A stretch of DNA of 64,000 bases from Dehalococcoidia bacterium (GCA_965243185.1 OZ251531.1:72698-136697), one strand, 5' to 3'. Positions 39,182 through 48,782 are shown, numbered from the stretch's first letter. Made by a program: numbers and translations. The notes: generated from the sequence alone by a model not told the origin.

Positions 39182-41917
39182 TCACCCCGCCCGCTCCAAA
39201 TTCAACGCCAGCAAACGCCCCAAAATCACCTGCTCCTCCAAATCCACCGCCCACCCATAAGCCGCCGCCACCGCCGCATCCAACTCCCGATGCGCATTGA
39301 CCAGCCAAGTCGGACTCTGGTTATACAAGTTCGTCAAAGTCCGCCCTTTCCGTTCCGCCTCCGTCAACCCCGGCTTGCCCTCCTCGTCCACCGGCTTTAA
39401 CCAATTCCCCCGCAACTCATCCAAATTAACCGCCGCCTCGGCGATAGCCGCCCTTTGCCCCTCAGTAGGTTCCGGGAACGGAAAAGTCCAAAAGCAGGCA
39501 GTGGGAATATAGCGCGATGCCGATTCCTTATCCCGCAGTTGCGGCCCCATCGCCCGGGCCCACAAATTGTGAATGCGGGAATGCAGTACGCCGAAAAAAT
39601 AATCATCGTCCCGGGCAAATACATTGGTGGCATTGTTGCAAATAGTGCCAGCCTCGACCCAAACAAAGGTCAAATGCTTGGCCGTAACCGAATGGGCTAT
39701 GTATCGGGGCAAGCCGGCAAGAGCCGCCGTCATATTCCTTGCCGGCTGGCGGGATTGCCAATAATTCCCGGCCAAATCCAGCCCGGCTTGCTCCGCCGCT
39801 TGTTTTGCCAACTCAAAAGGCGCTTCGTACGCTGCCGCTTCGGCCAAAGACCTATCGCCAAAGGCAATAGTGTAATACCCCCGGGGACGCCCGGATAGGT
39901 CTTGCCCGTTTCTTACCGGAACCAAGACATCCGAATTAGGCTTCCGATTCGGATTGCCACCAGCTGCCAAAAGTTTTGCGGCTACATCCCCGGGAATGTC
40001 AAAAGGCGAAGTGCTCGGACCGCGGAACGCAATGCCGGCATTAGCCGGCAATTTTCGGGCCGCAACCAAATCGACCTGCGGCTCGAGATTCGCAAAGATA
40101 TGTTCCACCGGCTCGCCGTCAATCGTCTTACTGGTTTGCGAACCGTCGTCAAATCCAATGATTGAAACATGGACGCTGGCCCCGTCCAGCAGCCAATCCC
40201 GGTCCGGGTAGGCCATAAATATGCCGCCCGACTCAGTTATCCGCTCCAACACTCCCCGGCTATACACCGAGCGGATATTCTGCGTAGCCAGCAAACCGGC
40301 GCGCTTGGCCTTGCCGTTAGCTATTTGCTGCCGGGCAAGCTCAAACCAATAGCAGCACAAGTCCGATGACCGTTTTATCGCAGATTTATACGCCGTGTCA
40401 ACGTCGTCGATGTATGCCCGCTCAAAGTTTTTATTCCAACTCCGGCGGCCCAAAAACGGCGGATTGCCAATGACAAAATCCGCCGCCGGCCACTCCGCTT
40501 CCCTCGGATTATCCGGATCCGCCAAATCCAGAATGGCATCCCCCTGCCGCACCGTATCCAGCGGCGTCAAAATCGGCTCCTGGACATACTCAAACCCGTT
40601 AGCCTGATGCCACTGAATATAGCCAATCCACAACGCCGTCCGCGCCAACTCCGCGGCGTAAGAGTTAATTTCCAGCCCCTGCATCTGATTCGGCTTCACC
40701 AACGGCGTCAAATCCTCCCAGCCCTGTACCGCCGCAAAGTCAATCGCCTGCCGCTCCAAATCCAGCAGGGAACGCAGCGCAATGTAAAGAAAGTTGCCGC
40801 TGCCGCAAGCCGGATCCAGCACCTTCACCCCGGCCAAACGCCGCCGGTAATCCTCCAACCGCTGCCGCGCCTTTTCCCCGTCCCCGTCCGCCAGATAATC
40901 CCCCATCTCCCCCTTGGCCGCCTCCCACTCCCGCCGCAGCGGCTCCAGCACCACCGGCTCCACCACCAGCATTATGTCCTCCGCCCCGGTGTAATGCGCC
41001 CCCAGCTGCGACCGCTTCGACGCATCCAACGCCCGCTCAAACAGCGTCCCGAATATCGACGGTTCAATGCCGTTCCAGTTCTTTTTAACCGCCTCCCCCA
41101 ACCGTTGCAGCGCCGCCGGACTCAGCTCCACCGTATCCGCCGCCTCAAACAAATCCCCGTTGAACCACGGAATTTCCGCTGCCCCGAACATCCCGCCCAC
41201 CGCCATCTGCTCAAACAACCCGCCCATCGCCCGGTTGAACGCCGTCGGATCCCGATACTCCCGGCTCACAATCTGCGTAAAGAGCTTGTCCGGCAGCAGC
41301 CCGGCATCCTCGGCGTACAGGCAGAACACGATCTGATTCAAATACCGCGCCAACCGCTCCGGATCCTCGTTATGCGCCTCCATATCCGCCACAATATCCC
41401 GGAACAAATCCGCCGTTTCCCGGGTAACCTCCTCCACCGACCGCTCCGGCCGCAAATCCCCCGGCGCAAAAAATGCGCTGCGGAGCAATTGCAGCTTTTC
41501 CGGTTCCGCCAGTTCCGGCAGCGCAATATCGTGCCGCGTCGTCACCATCCCCGGAAAGTTCGTCTGTATCCGTATCGACCGAAAAGAGGAAACAATCAGC
41601 AGCGGCGGCGTCTTGAGATGCACCTGATAGCGCAGCAGCTGGGTCATCGCCCCGTCCAAATCCCCATCGCTCCCCTTGAACTCCCACCCGAACCGCTCCT
41701 CCAGGTAAGCATCCGCAAACCCGCCCGGCACCCATTTCTCAAAAGTGAACGCCGCCGGATTGCCATACTCCCCCGGCGTAGCGTGTCCCACCATCCGGCA
41801 AATATCCAGGAACATTTCCTGCGCCGCCTGCTTTTCCCCGAACTGAACCGACATCCACTTGTTGATGAACCGTTCCGGCCGCAAACTCGGCTGCCGCGCC
41901 TCGCTAAAAAGCGTCAT
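39182..41917 (-). CDS. MmeI-like type IIL/IIG fused restriction endonuclease / N6-adenine methyltransferase
   Basis: N-terminal D…EFK (ADAYLEERFGWEFKG), FNGDLF, IEPSIFGTLFE, LGAHYT, LDPACGSGNFL and GNPPFLG motifs, TRD with LHSRIH, ~911 aa. Confidence 0.9.
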   Translation of the reverse strand: MTLFSEARQPSLRPERFINKWMSVQFGEKQAAQEMFLDICRMVGHATPGEYGNPAAFTFEKWVPGGFADAYLEERFGWEFKGSDGDLDGAMTQLLRYQVHLKTPPLLIVSSFRSIRIQTNFPGMVTTRHDIALPELAEPEKLQLLRSAFFAPGDLRPERSVEEVTRETADLFRDIVADMEAHNEDPERLARYLNQIVFCLYAEDAGLLPDKLFTQIVSREYRDPTAFNRAMGGLFEQMAVGGMFGAAEIPWFNGDLFEAADTVELSPAALQRLGEAVKKNWNGIEPSIFGTLFERALDASKRSQLGAHYTGAEDIMLVVEPVVLEPLRREWEAAKGEMGDYLADGDGEKARQRLEDYRRRLAGVKVLDPACGSGNFLYIALRSLLDLERQAIDFAAVQGWEDLTPLVKPNQMQGLEINSYAAELARTALWIGYIQWHQANGFEYVQEPILTPLDTVRQGDAILDLADPDNPREAEWPAADFVIGNPPFLGRRSWNKNFERAYIDDVDTAYKSAIKRSSDLCCYWFELARQQIANGKAKRAGLLATQNIRSVYSRGVLERITESGGIFMAYPDRDWLLDGASVHVSIIGFDDGSQTSKTIDGEPVEHIFANLEPQVDLVAARKLPANAGIAFRGPSTSPFDIPGDVAAKLLAAGGNPNRKPNSDVLVPVRNGQDLSGRPRGYYTIAFGDRSLAEAAAYEAPFELAKQAAEQAGLDLAGNYWQSRQPARNMTAALAGLPRYIAHSVTAKHLTFVWVEAGTICNNATNVFARDDDYFFGVLHSRIHNLWARAMGPQLRDKESASRYIPTACFWTFPFPEPTEGQRAAIAEAAVNLDELRGNWLKPVDEEGKPGLTEAERKGRTLTNLYNQSPTWLVNAHRELDAAVAAAYGWAVDLEEQVILGRLLALNLERAG

Positions 41918-41957
41918 AACTCCCTCCAACTTTCCCCGGTAACCCCTTGGGCAATGC

Positions 41958-43192: not shown

Positions 43193-43274
43193 GAGGGTTC
43201 CCTTCGATTGTGGTTGATTTTCTGAATCCTCGGTTGCGCCTGGAAATCAGCTCAACCCCAATCGAAAGGAACCC
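43193..43274. other. 82-nt imperfect hairpin
   Basis: GGGTTCC-C-TTCGATTG-T-GGTTGA pairs with TCAACC-C-CAATCGAA-A-GGAACCC. Confidence 0.75.
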
Positions 43275-43369
43275 AATGTAGGGAGGGTCAAAAGGGTCAC
43301 TAATTTGGATAAGGGCAGGAGGGACTAATCCCTCCCGCTCTTTCTGGCCCGCCGGCAGTCGGGGCCGGG

Positions 43370-44128
43370 CTACTTGATGTACCGGATGGAGTGAATAGCC
43401 AACGGCGGGGCCTTTATGTATGCGCCGGGAATATCCGAACCCCACACCAGCAAATCAACCGGCTCGGTCAGATTGCCCACCGGCACTTTTATGGAGAAAG
43501 ACCGGTCGCTCACATCCCAAAGGGTTGCCTCGGCAGTCCCGGGCGTGTTCGGGTAGGATGCGCCCGGAGGGGCGGGACGGAGGATAATCAACGCGTCGCG
43601 GTCGGTGTTCCGGTATTTGATGACAAAGGTAGCGACCGACGGAGAGTTCAAGAGGGTGCGACCGCCCAATACGGTTCCCGCAGCCCGCAGTATGCCGTTC
43701 TCAATGACGGGACACTCCGACCACCGAATGGCGTCGTGTTCCTGGAAAAGGTGGGCCCCATCAGCAAAGCGGAAACAGGTAGAAGTTTCCGCCAGGGTCG
43801 GCGTGGGCCTAAGGGTAGCGGGCGGACGGGGGGTATGGGGGTAGTAGGCGGGCGTGGGCGTCGGTGGCGCAGGCGTGGCGGTCGGGTTCGGTGTGGCGGT
43901 GGGACGGGGGGTAAAGGTAGGCATAAGGGTAGCCCAAGGGGTTGGCGTGGGCGGAAGCGTGATGGCCGATTGGGACGTGGGGCGCGGCGTGGCGGTGGGG
44001 ACGGGAGTAGCGGTAGGAGACGGGGTAGCGGTGGGAGACGAGGGAACGGCCGGGGCGGCGGTAGCGCAGGCCACGGCGGTGAGCAACAAGATAGCCCCAA
44101 AGGTAAGGATGGGCCGGATTTTCAGCAT
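43370..44128 (-). CDS. lipoprotein with Pro/Thr-rich linker
   Basis: AAGGAGG RBS; LLTAVA-C lipobox; PTATP repeats; globular C-terminus. Confidence 0.8.
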   Translation of the reverse strand: MLKIRPILTFGAILLLTAVACATAAPAVPSSPTATPSPTATPVPTATPRPTSQSAITLPPTPTPWATLMPTFTPRPTATPNPTATPAPPTPTPAYYPHTPRPPATLRPTPTLAETSTCFRFADGAHLFQEHDAIRWSECPVIENGILRAAGTVLGGRTLLNSPSVATFVIKYRNTDRDALIILRPAPPGASYPNTPGTAEATLWDVSDRSFSIKVPVGNLTEPVDLLVWGSDIPGAYIKAPPLAIHSIRYIK

Positions 44129-44189
44129 AAAACCTCCTTGAGTTCCGGGTTAGGCTGTTGTGGGAGCGCAGCCGGGGCAACCATCTGCT

Positions 44190-44235
44190 GCGCGCCCGGC
44201 GGAGCCAAACAGTTTGCCGGCTCCGCCGGGCGCGC
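44190..44235. terminator. 17-bp perfect GC-rich hairpin between the two lipoprotein genes
   Basis: GCGCGCCCGGCGGAGCC (44190-44206) / GGCTCCGCCGGGCGCGC (44219-44235); no U-tract. Confidence 0.5.
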
Positions 44236-44238
44236 TGA

Positions 44239-45069
44239 TTACCGCCGCTGGTTCGTGTAGATGAGGCTGTCAAAAACCCGCTCGACGAAAGCGTCGTCAT
44301 ACTGGCCTGTCCAGTCGGCGCACACGTCCATCGTGATGACGAAAAGACGCACGGACTGAAAAATGTATAACCCGTAACTCTCTTGGTCATCGCAATAGCC
44401 AATGTTCCGCGAATACCGATACCGCGAACGCTGGATAGTTGGCGAAACTTCGTAAAAGGCATCCAGCTCAAAGCCGGGTTCTTTTTTCCTGAGGCCCAAG
44501 AAGCCATCAGCGAAGCCCGCAAGGGTAAGGTCCTTGTCCATACGCTCGCCCCGGGTTCCAGAAAAGACCATCAGGGTAGCCCGATACCAAGGGGCGTTAA
44601 AGGAAACAATGCTGTGGTGGTCGGACTCTGCCGCCCAATCCTCCGGCAAATCAACACTGAAATAAGACTTGGGGCTAAACCTTTGCCAAGGAACCGTCGG
44701 CACTGGAGTGGCCGTCGGTTGCGGCGTAGCGGTCGGTGTCGGCGTCGGCTCTAGAGTAGCGGTCGGCTCCTGGGTGGCTGTGGGTCGCGGCGTAGCGGTG
44801 GGCGTAGGAGTAGCGGTAGGCGTGGGTTCGGGCGTGGCTGTGGGTCGCGGTGTGGCAGTAGGAGTGGGGGAAGGGGTAGGGGTAGCCGTCGGTAACGGCG
44901 TGGCGGTGGGCGCAGGGGTGGGAGTAGAGGTAGCCAACGGAGTAGAGGTAGGAGTGGGCTGAGGCGTGGCCGTGGGAAGCGGGGTAGCGGTAGGGGCAGC
45001 GGTAGCGCAGGCAACGGCGGTCAGGGCAAGGACCAAGAGATAGATAAGGACGGGCAGGACTTTCCGCAT
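44239..45069 (-). CDS. lipoprotein with long PTATP linker and PsbP-like C-terminal domain
   Basis: LALTAVA-C lipobox; more than 10 PT(A/P)T repeats; WQRF…FSVDLPEDW opening typical of PsbP-like folds (inference). Confidence 0.8.
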
Positions 45070-45103
45070 CAGGAACCCCCTTGCGTTCAGGATTAGGCTA
45101 CTG

Positions 45104-45216
45104 TGCGAGAGTCGCCGGGTTCCCGTGCAAAGCGCACACAAGGGGGCAAACAAGTTGCCCAACCCTGCAACAGGGCTTTGCACCAAGGGATACCGTTACT
45201 AACCGGGACTCTCGCA
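45104..45216. other. multibranched structured element upstream of the lipoprotein pair
   Basis: Nested helices TGCGAGAGTC/GACTCTCGCA, CCGG/CCGG, GGTTCCC/GGGATACC, GTGCAAAGC/GCTTTGCAC, GGGCAA/TTGCCC and CCTG/CAGG. Confidence 0.55.
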
Positions 45217-45274
45217 AGGGGGAATATACGCTCTTGCGTCGGCAGTGTCAATAGCGCCAACGGCGGCCGCCGGG

Positions 45275-46396
45275 CTAAGTCACTTTCCGCACCATCCAGC
45301 GCATATCGTCAAACTGGCCGGCCTGCAATTTGACCAACACCGTAGCCAGATAGCTCAAGGTCGACAGCAAAGCGTGGAGGGTGATTGATTTCAACCCGCG
45401 CCGGTAGTGTCGATCCAAGCTTCGGCTCTCCTTCATGGACTTGAAAATTTGCTCGATTTGCCAGCGTTTGCCGTACCACTCCTTCGATTGCCGGCTCTGG
45501 CGGCGTATCACGCCAAAAAGCCGGATGTCCTCGGCCGGGTCTTGCCAATACTCGGTATCGCAGTGGCGGATGCCCCCTCGGGTCGAATCCCGCCGGTGGC
45601 AGCCCTCCCGCCGACAGCGGTAAAGGTGCTGCCCGGCCGCATTGGTCGTCACATACTCCATCGGGACTTGCCCCAAGCCGGTGGGAACGCCCTCCGCGGT
45701 GTATATATCCTGATACAGACCGGTTTTATTGCCCGGGCGGCGGATGTGGATAACCGGGGCAATGCCTTGCCGGTAGAGATACTGGTGATTGCCGGCGGCG
45801 GCATAGCCCCGGTCGGCAATGGCGACAGCCGGCTGGAACCATTGGTATTGGTCTTTGGCCGGCGCGACCAACGGCGGCAATTCCGGGGAATCGTTGCGGC
45901 TGCCGGTAGTGATGTGTTGCGCCAGCGGGATGCCGTAATGGGCGTCGGCTATCGTGTGCATTTTGTAGCCGAAAAACCACTCCGTCCCGTCTTTCCCGGA
46001 TTTGACCGAATGCTTGACGCTCCAGGAGGCTTCCGGGTCGCTGACCGGCTTGCGGTTGGGATTGCAGTGGGAGTGGATGGCGGTGGAGTCGATGGCTACC
46101 AATTCCCCCAAGTCGGGCAGGAAGTCCTTAATCCGCTCGGCAATGCCGGCGATGACGGGCTTCAGCAAATCCGAGCGGCCCTCCAGCCGCTTGATAAAGC
46201 GGTTGAACGTCCGGCGGACGGGAAACGGGTCGCCAAAGCCGCAAAGCTCCCGCAGTTGCGGATGGTCCTGGAGCTGCCGGATAAGGGCATTGGCGCTGGG
46301 CAAGCCCAGTTGGCAGCTGACCAGGCAGGCGCGCAACAAAGGCCGGAGCGGGTATCCCGGTCGGCCATTGGCACGATATAGCGCCAGGCGCGCCAG
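45275..46396 (-). pseudogene. IS1182/IS5-like DDE transposase, N-terminally truncated
   Basis: GRPGYP, AIDST, FFGYKMH, IADRGY and YGKRWQIEQIF motifs. The frame runs up to an in-frame TAG at the neighbouring IS boundary. Confidence 0.85.
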
Positions 46397-46416
46397 CTAG
46401 GGCCTGTTGACAAACC

Positions 46417-46896
46417 TTAAAGTGCCAGCTGGCGATTGACCGCCGGCCAGCCCCCGGGGTTCTGGCCGGTTTCCTTTTCCCGCATTGCTACTACCGTGGC
46501 CGCCAAGCAAAGGGTTGCCGCGTACATTTCGCCCAACTTGCAGTAGCGCGTCGCAATTCCCCGATACTCCTTGAGGGCCGCAAAGCGGTTTTCAATCAAA
46601 TGACGCAACCCATATACCGCCGGGTCGGGCCAAGCCGGCGGTCGCCGCCGGGCCCGGGAAGGTATCACCGGCCGGATGTCCGCCGCGGCCAACCAGCTAC
46701 GGATCAGGTCCGTATCATAGGCTTTGTCGGCAATCAGTTCTTGGGTGGCAACCGCACCAATCAAATCTGGCAGCACCACGCATTCCGCCGCATTGCCCGG
46801 GCGCAGGACAAACTTGACCAGTCGCCCCATAGCGTCGGCCAAGGCCACCACCTTGGTATTCAGCCCGCCGCGACTCCGCCCGATGGCTTGGGCCAA
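46417..46896 (-). CDS. IS5/IS427 transposase OrfB (reached by frameshift)
   Basis: GRSRGGLNTK, LIADKAYD and RHLIENRFAALKEYRGIATRYCK motifs. Confidence 0.88.
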   Translation of the reverse strand: MAQAIGRSRGGLNTKVVALADAMGRLVKFVLRPGNAAECVVLPDLIGAVATQELIADKAYDTDLIRSWLAAADIRPVIPSRARRRPPAWPDPAVYGLRHLIENRFAALKEYRGIATRYCKLGEMYAATLCLAATVVAMREKETGQNPGGWPAVNRQLAL

Positions 46897-47252
46897 CCGG
46901 GATTGGTCGCGGGAGCGTCCCCTTTTGGGGCGCCAGTCCCGTGCTGATGCCCTTTGACAAAAGTCCCATCCACCATTACGGTGTCCAACTGAAGCTCGCC
47001 GGCCAAGCTGTTGAACAGCTGCTCAAAGACGCCGGCTTTAGTCCAGCGGCGGAACCGTTGATACACCGAGTTCCATTTCCCAAACTCCGGGGGCAAGTCG
47101 CGCCAAGGATCTCCAGTGCGGGCAATCCACAGGATGCCCTCAACCGTGTTCCGATTTGCTTGCAGCGGTGGCCGGCCGCCTTTCTTGGGGTCGCCCCGCA
47201 AAGCCGGCTCCAGCCGCGCCCACTGCCGGTCGGATAACATCTTACGCGCCAA
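46860..47252 (-). CDS. IS5/IS427 transposase OrfA (DUF4096)
   Basis: LSDRQW, GRPP, ILWIARTG.PWRDLPPEFGKWNSVYQRFRRW and MVDGT motifs; CCAAAAGGGG slippery run near the end. Confidence 0.9.
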   Translation of the reverse strand: MARKMLSDRQWARLEPALRGDPKKGGRPPLQANRNTVEGILWIARTGDPWRDLPPEFGKWNSVYQRFRRWTKAGVFEQLFNSLAGELQLDTVMVDGTFVKGHQHGTGAPKGDAPATNPGWPKPSGGVAAG

Positions 47253-47545
47253 GCTATTCCCTCCTGATTAAGTTGCTGGTAATCTAATCAGGAGAAACGG
47301 GTTTGTCACAGGCCCTAGGAAATCACGCGTTTTCGGTGTCTTATCCAGATACAAAACTGCATCCAATTGTGTAACTCCTATGACAATGCTATCCTGCTTC
47401 CAGGTACGTTTAGAAGCAATAATGCGCTGATAATGATGAACTGCACTACGCGTTAAGCAGCCGCAATGCCCCAATTTAGGAGATTTGACGTTGCATCTGG
47501 CGGCTGGAAATGCTACAGTGTCACAAATGTTAGGAGGGTGTAGCA

Positions 47546-47806
47546 ATGACACAGATGTCTACGAGGAAGAAGCCCCGGGTAGTTGACGGTGTCTGTATGG
47601 GGATGCCTGAAGATGAAGGAGAACCGTGCGGCCACTACCCGGTAGCCGCTGTGGACGGCTCCCAATACGGGGTGAAACAAGACGTCGACCTGTGTGAAGT
47701 TTGTCTGTCCCGGCACGCATCGGGTAACCTGCGAAGGGCGTCCCCGGCGCGGCGAATTGGCGGCATCAGGATACACTCCACCAGCCCATTGTTTGAATCC
47801 CCGTGA
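47546..47806 (+). CDS. small hypothetical protein with Cys/His pairs (possible zinc finger)
   Basis: AGGAGG RBS; C…CGH…CEVC pattern. Confidence 0.45.
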   Translation: MTQMSTRKKPRVVDGVCMGMPEDEGEPCGHYPVAAVDGSQYGVKQDVDLCEVCLSRHASGNLRRASPARRIGGIRIHSTSPLFESP

Positions 47807-47904
47807 AACACGGTGGGCAATCCCGGCCGCGCCCTCACTAGAAACGAAACCGCTACCCAGCTAATGCCACCGGGAGCGGACATCTAACGCAGAGGACTGG
47901 AACG

Positions 47905-48606
47905 ATGAAAACCAAGAGGACGATTGCACCGCGTTTGCCTAAACATGGCAAGCAGTCGGCGGATGACCGCCGCAAAATCAGCAAGCGGTTCATCATCCAC
48001 GCCCGGAAAGAACTCAAAGCGGGCAATCGGCTACAGGCGGGGGAAAAAGTGTGGGGTGCCGGCTCGCAATACCTCAAAGTCATCGGCGAGCAACGGGGTT
48101 GGCCTCATTCCAGCCACGCAAACTTGCGCGACATCGGCTACCAAATAGTAGCCGAATACAACGGGGAACCGGGCGTTTCCGAAGTTGGCGAGGCTTTGAG
48201 CAAAGCCTACTTTACCGGCCACAACAACTTCTATGAAAACCTGTATCCTGTAGAGGATATTGCCGTCGCTATTGATGTCATGGAAGAGGCATTACCTCAC
48301 CTTGACAAGATAACGGCGTCCCCGCCGCGCCCCTTCACCATTGATTCCAACACGAAACTCAAGCGGTTGGAACGCCTTACCGGGCGCAATGACCTGCGTC
48401 TGGAAATGACCGATGACAATGGGTTCTCCTTAAAGGAACCCGCACCAGTCACGTCCCCTAAAATCGAGTTACGCAACGGCAAAAATGTTAATTCGCGGGC
48501 CTGCGCTTCGGCGGATGAGCCAGAGAGCCGGGCTTCAAGCCGTCGTCGAGGTAAAAAGGGCGGCAAAGAAGGCAAGCCTCCCAAAGTCAATGTGATTCTA
48601 GGGTAA
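47905..48606 (+). CDS. PaREP1-like (HEPN superfamily) protein with basic C-terminal tail
   Basis: A..EL.AG..LQAGEKVWGA…RGWPHSSH…HNNFYEN pattern. Confidence 0.7.
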   Translation: MKTKRTIAPRLPKHGKQSADDRRKISKRFIIHARKELKAGNRLQAGEKVWGAGSQYLKVIGEQRGWPHSSHANLRDIGYQIVAEYNGEPGVSEVGEALSKAYFTGHNNFYENLYPVEDIAVAIDVMEEALPHLDKITASPPRPFTIDSNTKLKRLERLTGRNDLRLEMTDDNGFSLKEPAPVTSPKIELRNGKNVNSRACASADEPESRASSRRRGKKGGKEGKPPKVNVILG

Positions 48607-48782
48607 TTCCAGCGTAATCGTACACCGCGTCAACAAGGGGCGGGAGGGCTAATCCCTCCCGCCTTTTTCCAAATCAGTGACCCTTTTGACCCTCCCTACC
48701 CAATGAAAGGCGGGGTGACAGGGGAAGGGGGGTGTGGTATAGTTGGGGCGGTATCCGATTTTTCCGATGGAGGGGTTTAGTC

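Follow-up and report, generated by a model that had tools for sequence, protein, structure and literature searches.

A probable decayed copy of a cargo-carrying insertion sequence, with its own truncated transposase, in a Dehalococcoidia genome

The genome of a Dehalococcoidia bacterium (3,374,202 bp in one contig, 61% G+C), which belongs to a lineage of metagenome-assembled genomes, contains a 5420-bp block at positions 43279-48698 of the 64,000-nucleotide (nt) stretch analysed here (OZ251531.1:72698-136697; below, the window, whose coordinates are used for the element). With a probability of roughly 0.9 we consider this block to be a decayed copy of a cargo-carrying insertion sequence (IS), that is, a transporter IS (tIS) or small unit transposon, equipped with its own DDE transposase of ~400 amino acids (aa). 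A preliminary description of this DNA had recognised a transposable element with terminal inverted repeats and a target duplication, which our analysis bears out, but had seen no cognate transposase and supposed the mobiliser to be elsewhere or deleted; according to our comparisons it is in place, in the open reading frame (ORF) at 45275-46396, truncated at its 5' end and most likely decaying. Much of the argument comes from two relatives: a copy of the same element in another genome of the genus (G001), and a sibling element of 3188 bp, found in five identical copies in the host genome itself. The sequence of the element is also present in sponge metagenomes.

The boundaries were set by the inverted arms and by comparison with related copies. 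A repeat finder gave two arms of 74 nt, at 43278-43351 and 48626-48699, which are 78% complementary and have CCAAT at both flanks; their outer 24-mer has exactly two occurrences in the window and none in 100 shuffles of it. The left junction reads ...GGAACCCAATG/TAGGGAGGGTCAAAAGGGTCACT... and the right one ...AGTGACCCTTTTGACCCTCCCTA/CCCAATGAAAGG..., where the G at 43278 and the C at 48699 add one pair to the inverted repeat and can equally be read as lengthening the direct repeat. The G001 copy, which lies at another locus, has the junctions CCCCA/TAGGGAAGG... and ...CCCTCCCTA/AATCG (A-TAGGG and CCCTA-A), and a solo end in the host genome reads GAGAC/TTAGGG (T-TAGGG). Since the outer G/C pair is conserved neither in the same-genus copy nor in the solo one, the terminus is TAGGG, not the GTAGGG read before, with T at 43279 and A at 48698 as the outermost bases, and the target duplication is the 7-mer CCCAATG instead of a 5-bp repeat. 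The alignment to the same-genus copy begins exactly at 43279, and at the left junction in G001 the homology to the unoccupied sequence of the host genome ends exactly before TAGGG. By chance, a 7-bp match at the exact ends would turn up in about one case in 16,000, and the match fits the rule of the family, so we regard the insertion as established. The principal features are as follows.

43272-43278, no strand: left target-site duplication CCCAATG (7 bp), identical to 48699-48705; the length is 7 bp in 5/5 sibling copies and in most relatives.
43279-43301, plus strand: left terminal inverted repeat, TAGGGAGGGTCAAAAGGGTCACT, which starts where homology with the same-genus copy starts and follows the family motif xAGRGxRGKKCAAAA; it holds AGGGTCA twice, in agreement with the repeat reported earlier for the outer part.
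45275-46396, minus strand: DDE transposase of the element (DUF772 and DDE_Tnp_1 by Pfam), with an open frame that lacks the first ~35 codons and the start codon.
48676-48698, minus strand: right terminal inverted repeat, placed by the repeat finder, the 24-mer count and the family end motif.
48699-48705, no strand: right target-site duplication CCCAATG, placed by the flank sequence and by family comparison.

The transposase frame is unique in the host genome at high identity, and no other homologues are encoded there except the five identical sibling loci, to which it is 68% identical in DNA; the window and G001 proteins share 54-57% of their residues with the 409-aa sibling transposase (window: 54%). 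Every examined member of this transposase clade sits between ends that carry the outer-end motif of the window element, the similarity of the ends follows that of the transposases across the clade, and no end-like motif was found inside the window element around the gene, which thus has no inverted ends of its own there. Together with the wider clade described below, these observations show that the outer ends belong to the internal transposase.

The same arrangement is preserved in G001, at a genomic site different from that of the window copy (L020 2886-7039, 4154 bp). This copy aligns to window positions 43279-46397 and 47671-48698 at 90-96% identity and has both lipoprotein genes, the transposase gene in the same place and the PaREP1-like gene, all in the same order; its transposase frame is complete, and homology with the window stops at 46397, at the insertion of an IS5-family IS, and resumes at 47671. 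A further, truncated copy in G001 (L023 1972-3435) is interrupted by another IS.

The five sibling copies lie in the host genome outside the window, at the following genome coordinates.

771059-774246, 1338659-1341846, 1707986-1711173, 1714937-1718124 and 1837656-1840843: sibling element.

All five are flanked by perfect 7-bp duplications (GGGGAGT, TCATACC, CGGGTTT, GGCAAGA and ATTGGTG). The sibling ends read TAGGCGAGTGCAAAAGG..., those of the window element TAGGGAGGGTCAAAAGG...; between them are a 152-aa ORF, the 409-aa transposase and a 217-aa Pro/Thr lipoprotein, and a hairpin with a T-run stands just inside each end. For the copy at 771,059 the target is uninterrupted in G001, where 500 bp of joined flanks align in one piece at 95%, which provides the family with a direct empty site. 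The sibling looks recently active. One solo left end of it was noted at 3203182 of the host genome, and beside sibling copy 2 there is a ~140-bp repeat with dozens of copies in G001 and partial matches of ~40-60 bp in G002.

A search of 5.8 billion proteins placed the transposase in a wider clade of 749 homologues (E <= 1e-10), more than 100 of which are ~400 aa long and 51-94% identical; nearly all are unnamed proteins of metagenome assemblies, the sole informative name being 'transposase [Chloroflexota bacterium]'. Representative genomes of the same order carry one to six copies in 28 of 251 cases, and there was no transposase match in 300 other genomes sampled across the phylum. The end motif xAGRGxRGKKCAAAA recurs in at least nine further elements, all from other genomes of the order (for instance TAGGGAGGGGCAAAAC, TAGAGAGGGGCAAAAC, GAGGGAAGTGCAAAAC, GAGAGAAGTGCAAAAG and AAGAGTTGTGCAAAAC), and of the duplications flanking the relatives seven are 7 bp long, three 6 bp and one 9 bp. 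The elements are 3141-5571 bp long and have 2-7 ORFs beyond the transposase, with 2-4.4 kb of extra DNA in every one examined; the transposase is the only protein common to all, and the cargo varies (lipoproteins, a ~150-aa upstream ORF in some, CAP, NUDIX and others). For ten further homologues, 39-54% identical to the sibling transposase, the motif search gave no end pair, so that the end motif is established for part of the clade only; a looser scan of these gave candidate ends with 6-bp flanking repeats in two. A homologue of 43% identity in another Dehalococcoidia genome (L037) lies in a nest of IS, where no clean ends were found. Downstream of it, at L037 7100-7165 and 10540-10600, the 12-mer GATTTTGGGTCA is clustered (5 matches, 0.04 expected); these clusters may mark the ends of a relative further removed, or they may belong to an unrelated repeat.

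The window copy of the transposase appears to be a relic. Its frame begins with '...ARLALYRANGRPGYPL', at about residue 38 of the sibling transposase; a stop codon stands where the IS joins the gene, and one has to go past the invariant GRPGYPLR motif to reach the first in-frame codon that could serve as a start. An alignment of 11 clade members shows conserved D, D and E motifs (VAIDSTA, IADRGY and KRWxIEQ). In it the window protein deviates at 5 of 74 otherwise invariant columns, among them a Trp, the D in DRGYD and a Cys of the C...C..C..C cluster, and the G001 protein has one private change at such columns. Most likely, then, the gene in the window is dead and drifting. The truncation coincides with an insertion and a replacement.

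46400-47315, minus strand: IS5-family IS, a later insertion, with two ORFs joined by frameshift and the ends GGGCCTGT(T)GACAAACC.
47319-47670, no strand: 350-bp segment of low G+C (47%), unique to the window copy, in place of the 158 bp with which the G001 copy encodes the N-terminus of its transposase.

The nested IS has CTAG as its target, with TA duplicated at 46398-46399 and 47316-47317, is present in at least 11 copies in the genome (88-99.7% identity) and is absent from the G001 copy; both of its ORFs score above the cutoff for NCBIfam transpos_IS5_3 (NF033580). For the 350-bp segment no second occurrence was found elsewhere. Two later IS insertions had been supposed within the element: the one at 46400-47315 (at least 11 near-identical copies) is indeed later, and the other, 45275-46396, is the element's own transposase.

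Taken together, the family comparison suggests the following course of events. The transposase would bind the inverted ends of ~17-24 nt (TAGGGAGGGTCAAAAGG...) and move the whole block; a staggered cut at the target, followed by repair, would leave the 7-bp duplication. The block was inserted where the promoters of the rpsP-KH-rimM operon and of a cupin gene diverge, bringing its passengers along, and the hairpins inside its ends would stop the outward-reading passengers, probably insulating neighbours and transposase from read-through. Later, the IS5-family IS entered ~35 codons into the transposase gene, where the 158 bp upstream came to be replaced by unrelated DNA, and the remaining frame has begun to gather changes at invariant positions.

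Several results have to be held against this reconstruction. The G001 copy has no target duplication and is at a rearrangement junction, and the reciprocal empty-site test failed. The flanks of the window copy, mapped to two same-genus and two same-family genomes, were never adjacent (in G001 they fall on separate contigs, in G002 they are inverted and separated by 17 kb), so that the empty-site check proposed earlier succeeded for the sibling copy at 771,059 and not for the window copy itself. Assembled Logan contigs from four public runs that hold the strain were all occupied, with no joint skipping the element, and the exact empty-junction 21-mer had no match in metagenome contigs of the Joint Genome Institute (JGI). 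The length of the duplication also varies among relatives (6, 8 and 9 bp besides 7). The terminal 19-mer weighs neither way: in the same JGI contigs it had eight single matches (six distinct), about the number expected by chance from a rough estimate; none was paired and none had a transposase in the sequence seen, with 5-6 kb of interior in three.

The window copy might still be mobile, cross-mobilised in trans by the sibling transposase instead of being a dead relic. We consider this unlikely, though less so than the other alternatives: the window ends (23/24 nt identical between arms) and the duplication are intact, a sibling that was recently active in the same cell left five identical copies, and 13 of the 17 terminal nt are common to the ends of both elements; set against this, four of the 17 terminal positions differ, the transposases are only 54-57% identical, and the window type has had no recent amplification, with one full copy and one solo end.

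A far less probable reading is that of the preliminary description, in which the block is a non-autonomous cargo transposon or a composite of paired miniature inverted-repeat transposable elements (MITEs), with its mobiliser elsewhere or deleted and both internal transposases being unrelated later IS. It is true that the element is single-copy, that the internal transposase is 5'-truncated and that one internal IS did come later. Yet the same-genus copy has the transposase gene in this position too, ends of the same motif directly bound the homologues of the gene in at least ten other elements, and the gene has neither inverted ends of its own nor a genomic homologue besides the five sibling copies. 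A MITE would have no cognate transposase gene inside, whereas here a truncated one is present at 45275-46396; thus the element is probably non-autonomous now, as had been said, by truncation of its own gene and not as a MITE-pair composite.

That the 65-74-nt arms are dispersed copies of a repetitive extragenic palindrome (REP) or terminator family, facing each other by accident around a chance CCAAT/CCCAATG repeat, can be practically dismissed, for although each arm has a strong intrinsic-terminator hairpin and one solo copy exists at 739,175, the genome of 3.37 Mb holds only three copies of the terminus (<=5 mismatches), two of them paired around the element, which is too few for a hairpin-only terminator family and far from the many unpaired copies named earlier as a refutation, the arms enclose 4-5 kb as one unit at a different site in the same-genus genome, and exact duplications flank most family members examined.

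The solo end in the host genome (739132-739197; L007 ~1454-1520) has the terminal repeat and the hairpin with no other element sequence beside it, and it is the remnant of a second insertion. Integration linked to a tRNA was considered and rejected: there is no tRNA beside the solo end and no integrase in the Pfam scan of the element ORFs.

Returning to the decayed cargo-carrying IS, its contents were mapped by Pfam and NCBIfam scans and by self-comparison against the genome. The remaining features within it, and the neighbours outside it, are listed here.

43307-43345, minus strand: left subterminal hairpin (-26.4 kcal/mol, z = -3.2), terminator-like on the plus strand at 43318-43335.
43370-44128, minus strand: passenger 1, a secreted or lipoprotein-like protein of 252 aa with a signal peptide ending in Cys and a Pro/Thr-rich linker.
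44239-45069, minus strand: passenger 2, lipoprotein-like with a Pro/Thr linker and a C-terminal domain different from that of passenger 1; 96% identity to the same-genus copy.
47905-48606, plus strand: passenger 3, a PaREP1/HEPN-like protein of 233 aa (Pfam PF05942, 30.3 bits against a cutoff of 24.4).
48635-48667, plus strand: right subterminal hairpin, a 14-bp stem followed by T5 (-27.8 kcal/mol, z = -4.1), directly after the PaREP1-like gene.
43148-43120, minus strand: promoter-like site of rpsP-KH-rimM, outside the element, from the promoter scan.
48715-48743, plus strand: promoter-like site of the cupin gene, outside the element, from the promoter scan.

The cargo of two Pro/Thr lipoproteins and a PaREP1/HEPN-like protein, as proposed before, is supported by the scans and by family comparison. 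Passenger 1 matched no Pfam or NCBIfam family; its C-terminal domain is 41% identical to that of the sibling lipoprotein (E = 3e-33), and the protein is 85% identical to the same-genus copy. The likely start of passenger 2 is the Met at 45069, where the listed ORF reaches 45186, and upstream of it there is a strong promoter-like site (45251-45223, minus strand, 11/12 matches). Passenger 3 is 95% identical to the same-genus copy and has paralogues elsewhere in the host genome. At three loci (genome 1561036-1562624 and 3059722-3061309, and window 46400-48410) PaREP1/HEPN-like paralogues stand 0.2-0.65 kb from the same IS5-family IS, two of these loci being within a duplicated IS-rich segment of ~8 kb that also holds a D12 methyltransferase and transposases of IS1595 and rve type; a fourth paralogue lies at ~1600.4-1600.9 kb of the genome. 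The Cys-rich ORF previously counted as cargo does exist, as a four-Cys ORF at 47546-47806, and starts inside the unique 350-bp segment, so that it is partly made of it; it had no family match in the Pfam scan.

The outward-facing hairpins of terminator type noted earlier inside both ends are confirmed by their folds. The left one, 3' of the lipoprotein gene, has a poor T-run in the window and TTTTTT after the stem in the G001 copy, and it probably terminates the outward-reading lipoprotein gene; its terminator-like score on the plus strand is for transcription entering from outside; the right one is, judged by its predicted fold, a canonical intrinsic terminator of the PaREP1-like gene. The sibling and the G007 element (L044-L046) have hairpins of differing sequence in matching positions, L047 has one at a single end, and the ends of the L048 element have no subterminal hairpin. 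We infer that these hairpins are the terminators of the outermost genes, which would also insulate the element, and that they are common in the clade, yet would lie outside the recombination site proper.

Beyond the element, directly downstream of rimM, where the rpsP-KH-rimM gene row has its distal end, is an MmeI-like type IIL restriction-modification enzyme of 915 aa (window 39182-41929, minus strand), with the domains MmeI_Mtase, MmeI_hel, MmeI_TRD and MmeI_C.

With regard to classification, the clade transposase appears to be distantly related to IS1182 and IS5, and it resembles IS1182 in fold and domain order. Of the NCBIfam models, IS1182 (NF033551) scores highest, with 168.8 bits for the sibling protein (E = 2e-49) and 144.4 for the same-genus protein, both below the cutoff of 270. 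The architecture of IS1182 is nevertheless there, with DUF772, DDE_Tnp_1 and a weak DDE_Tnp_1_6 tail by Pfam, and so are inverted ends and a target duplication. The nearest annotated proteins in 72,556 plasmids, among those listed, are mostly called 'IS1182 family transposase', at ~23-25% identity over 80-88% of the length. IS1182 members have a single ORF and a length of about 1.3-2 kb. The clade differs from such compact elements in having, next to a transposase of ~400-425 aa, elements of 3.1-5.6 kb with passengers and duplications mostly of 7 bp; the IS1182 member ISPse1, for comparison, is 1653 bp long, with inverted repeats of 16 bp and a 4-bp duplication (PMC3281130). IS5 models are second-best; the top one (NF033581) gives 102 bits where 140 are required, and none of them reaches its cutoff; the genuine IS5-family IS nested at 46400-47315 is clearly different from the clade element by NCBIfam. 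IS5-group elements are ~1.2 kb long with 4-bp duplications, and there is some likeness, a lead only, between their ends (GGAAGGTGCGAA...) and the GAGGGAAGTGCAAAAC found at the ends of several clade members.

Like Tn3, Tn7/Tn5053 and Mu, the element carries cargo between terminal inverted repeats, but the ends of the clade are unrelated to theirs and the duplication is 7 bp, not 5, so that the earlier comparison made through a 5-bp duplication does not apply; no Tn3-type, TnsABC-type or MuA-type protein was found in the Pfam and NCBIfam scans. The closer likeness is to tIS, a concept that reportedly goes back to Siguier, Chandler and colleagues. An IS-type transposase and inverted ends enclose genes without a role in transposition, and the passenger sets are lineage-specific; in most IS families tIS are occasional derivatives, whereas every clade element examined has extra DNA. 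The term itself, for passenger-carrying IS, is used in ISsaga (PMC3129680). Its NCBIfam scores, size, duplication length and cargo set the clade apart from typical IS1182 and IS5 members, and it is apparently an uncatalogued, order-restricted group of cargo-carrying IS, some member of which may already have a name in ISfinder.

Clade copies are also located at synteny breakpoints. In G007 two identical, inverted copies of 3141 bp (L044 and L045, at ~0.55 and 1.13 Mb) have the duplications TCCTGCAA and TTGCCTT (8 and 7 bp) swapped between their flanks, a signature which implies an inversion of ~580 kb, presumably by homologous recombination between the copies. At several breakpoints between the two same-genus genomes we also noted a short palindromic repeat, CCGTCATTCCCACGAAAGTGGGAATCCAGA (host genome 2665878-2665910; G001 L021 ~2075-2110 and L022 ~2130-2165).

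For annotation, our analysis means that an apparent orphan cargo transposon is in all probability a normal decayed IS with its own transposase. The general principles of transposition are unchanged by the finding, and for mobile-DNA biology its interest is a modest one for specialists, in that an apparently undescribed IS1182-like clade has been defined. We may tentatively go further, to a proposal that we hold with clearly less than even confidence, namely that the clade represents an uncatalogued IS family or subfamily, only remotely related to IS1182 and restricted to one Dehalococcoidia order that includes sponge symbionts; its members would be obligate cargo carriers with insulating terminators, a dedicated vehicle for shuffling surface-protein and defence-like genes and a driver of large inversions. 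If the obligate-cargo reading is true, each lineage would have its own passenger set on either side of the transposase (Pro/Thr-linker lipoproteins, PaREP1/HEPN, CAP, NUDIX and the ~150-aa upstream protein). Apart from this proposal, since its copies stand at breakpoints and one genome has two with swapped flanks, the clade helps to explain the poor conservation of gene order in these uncultured, partly sponge-associated bacteria.

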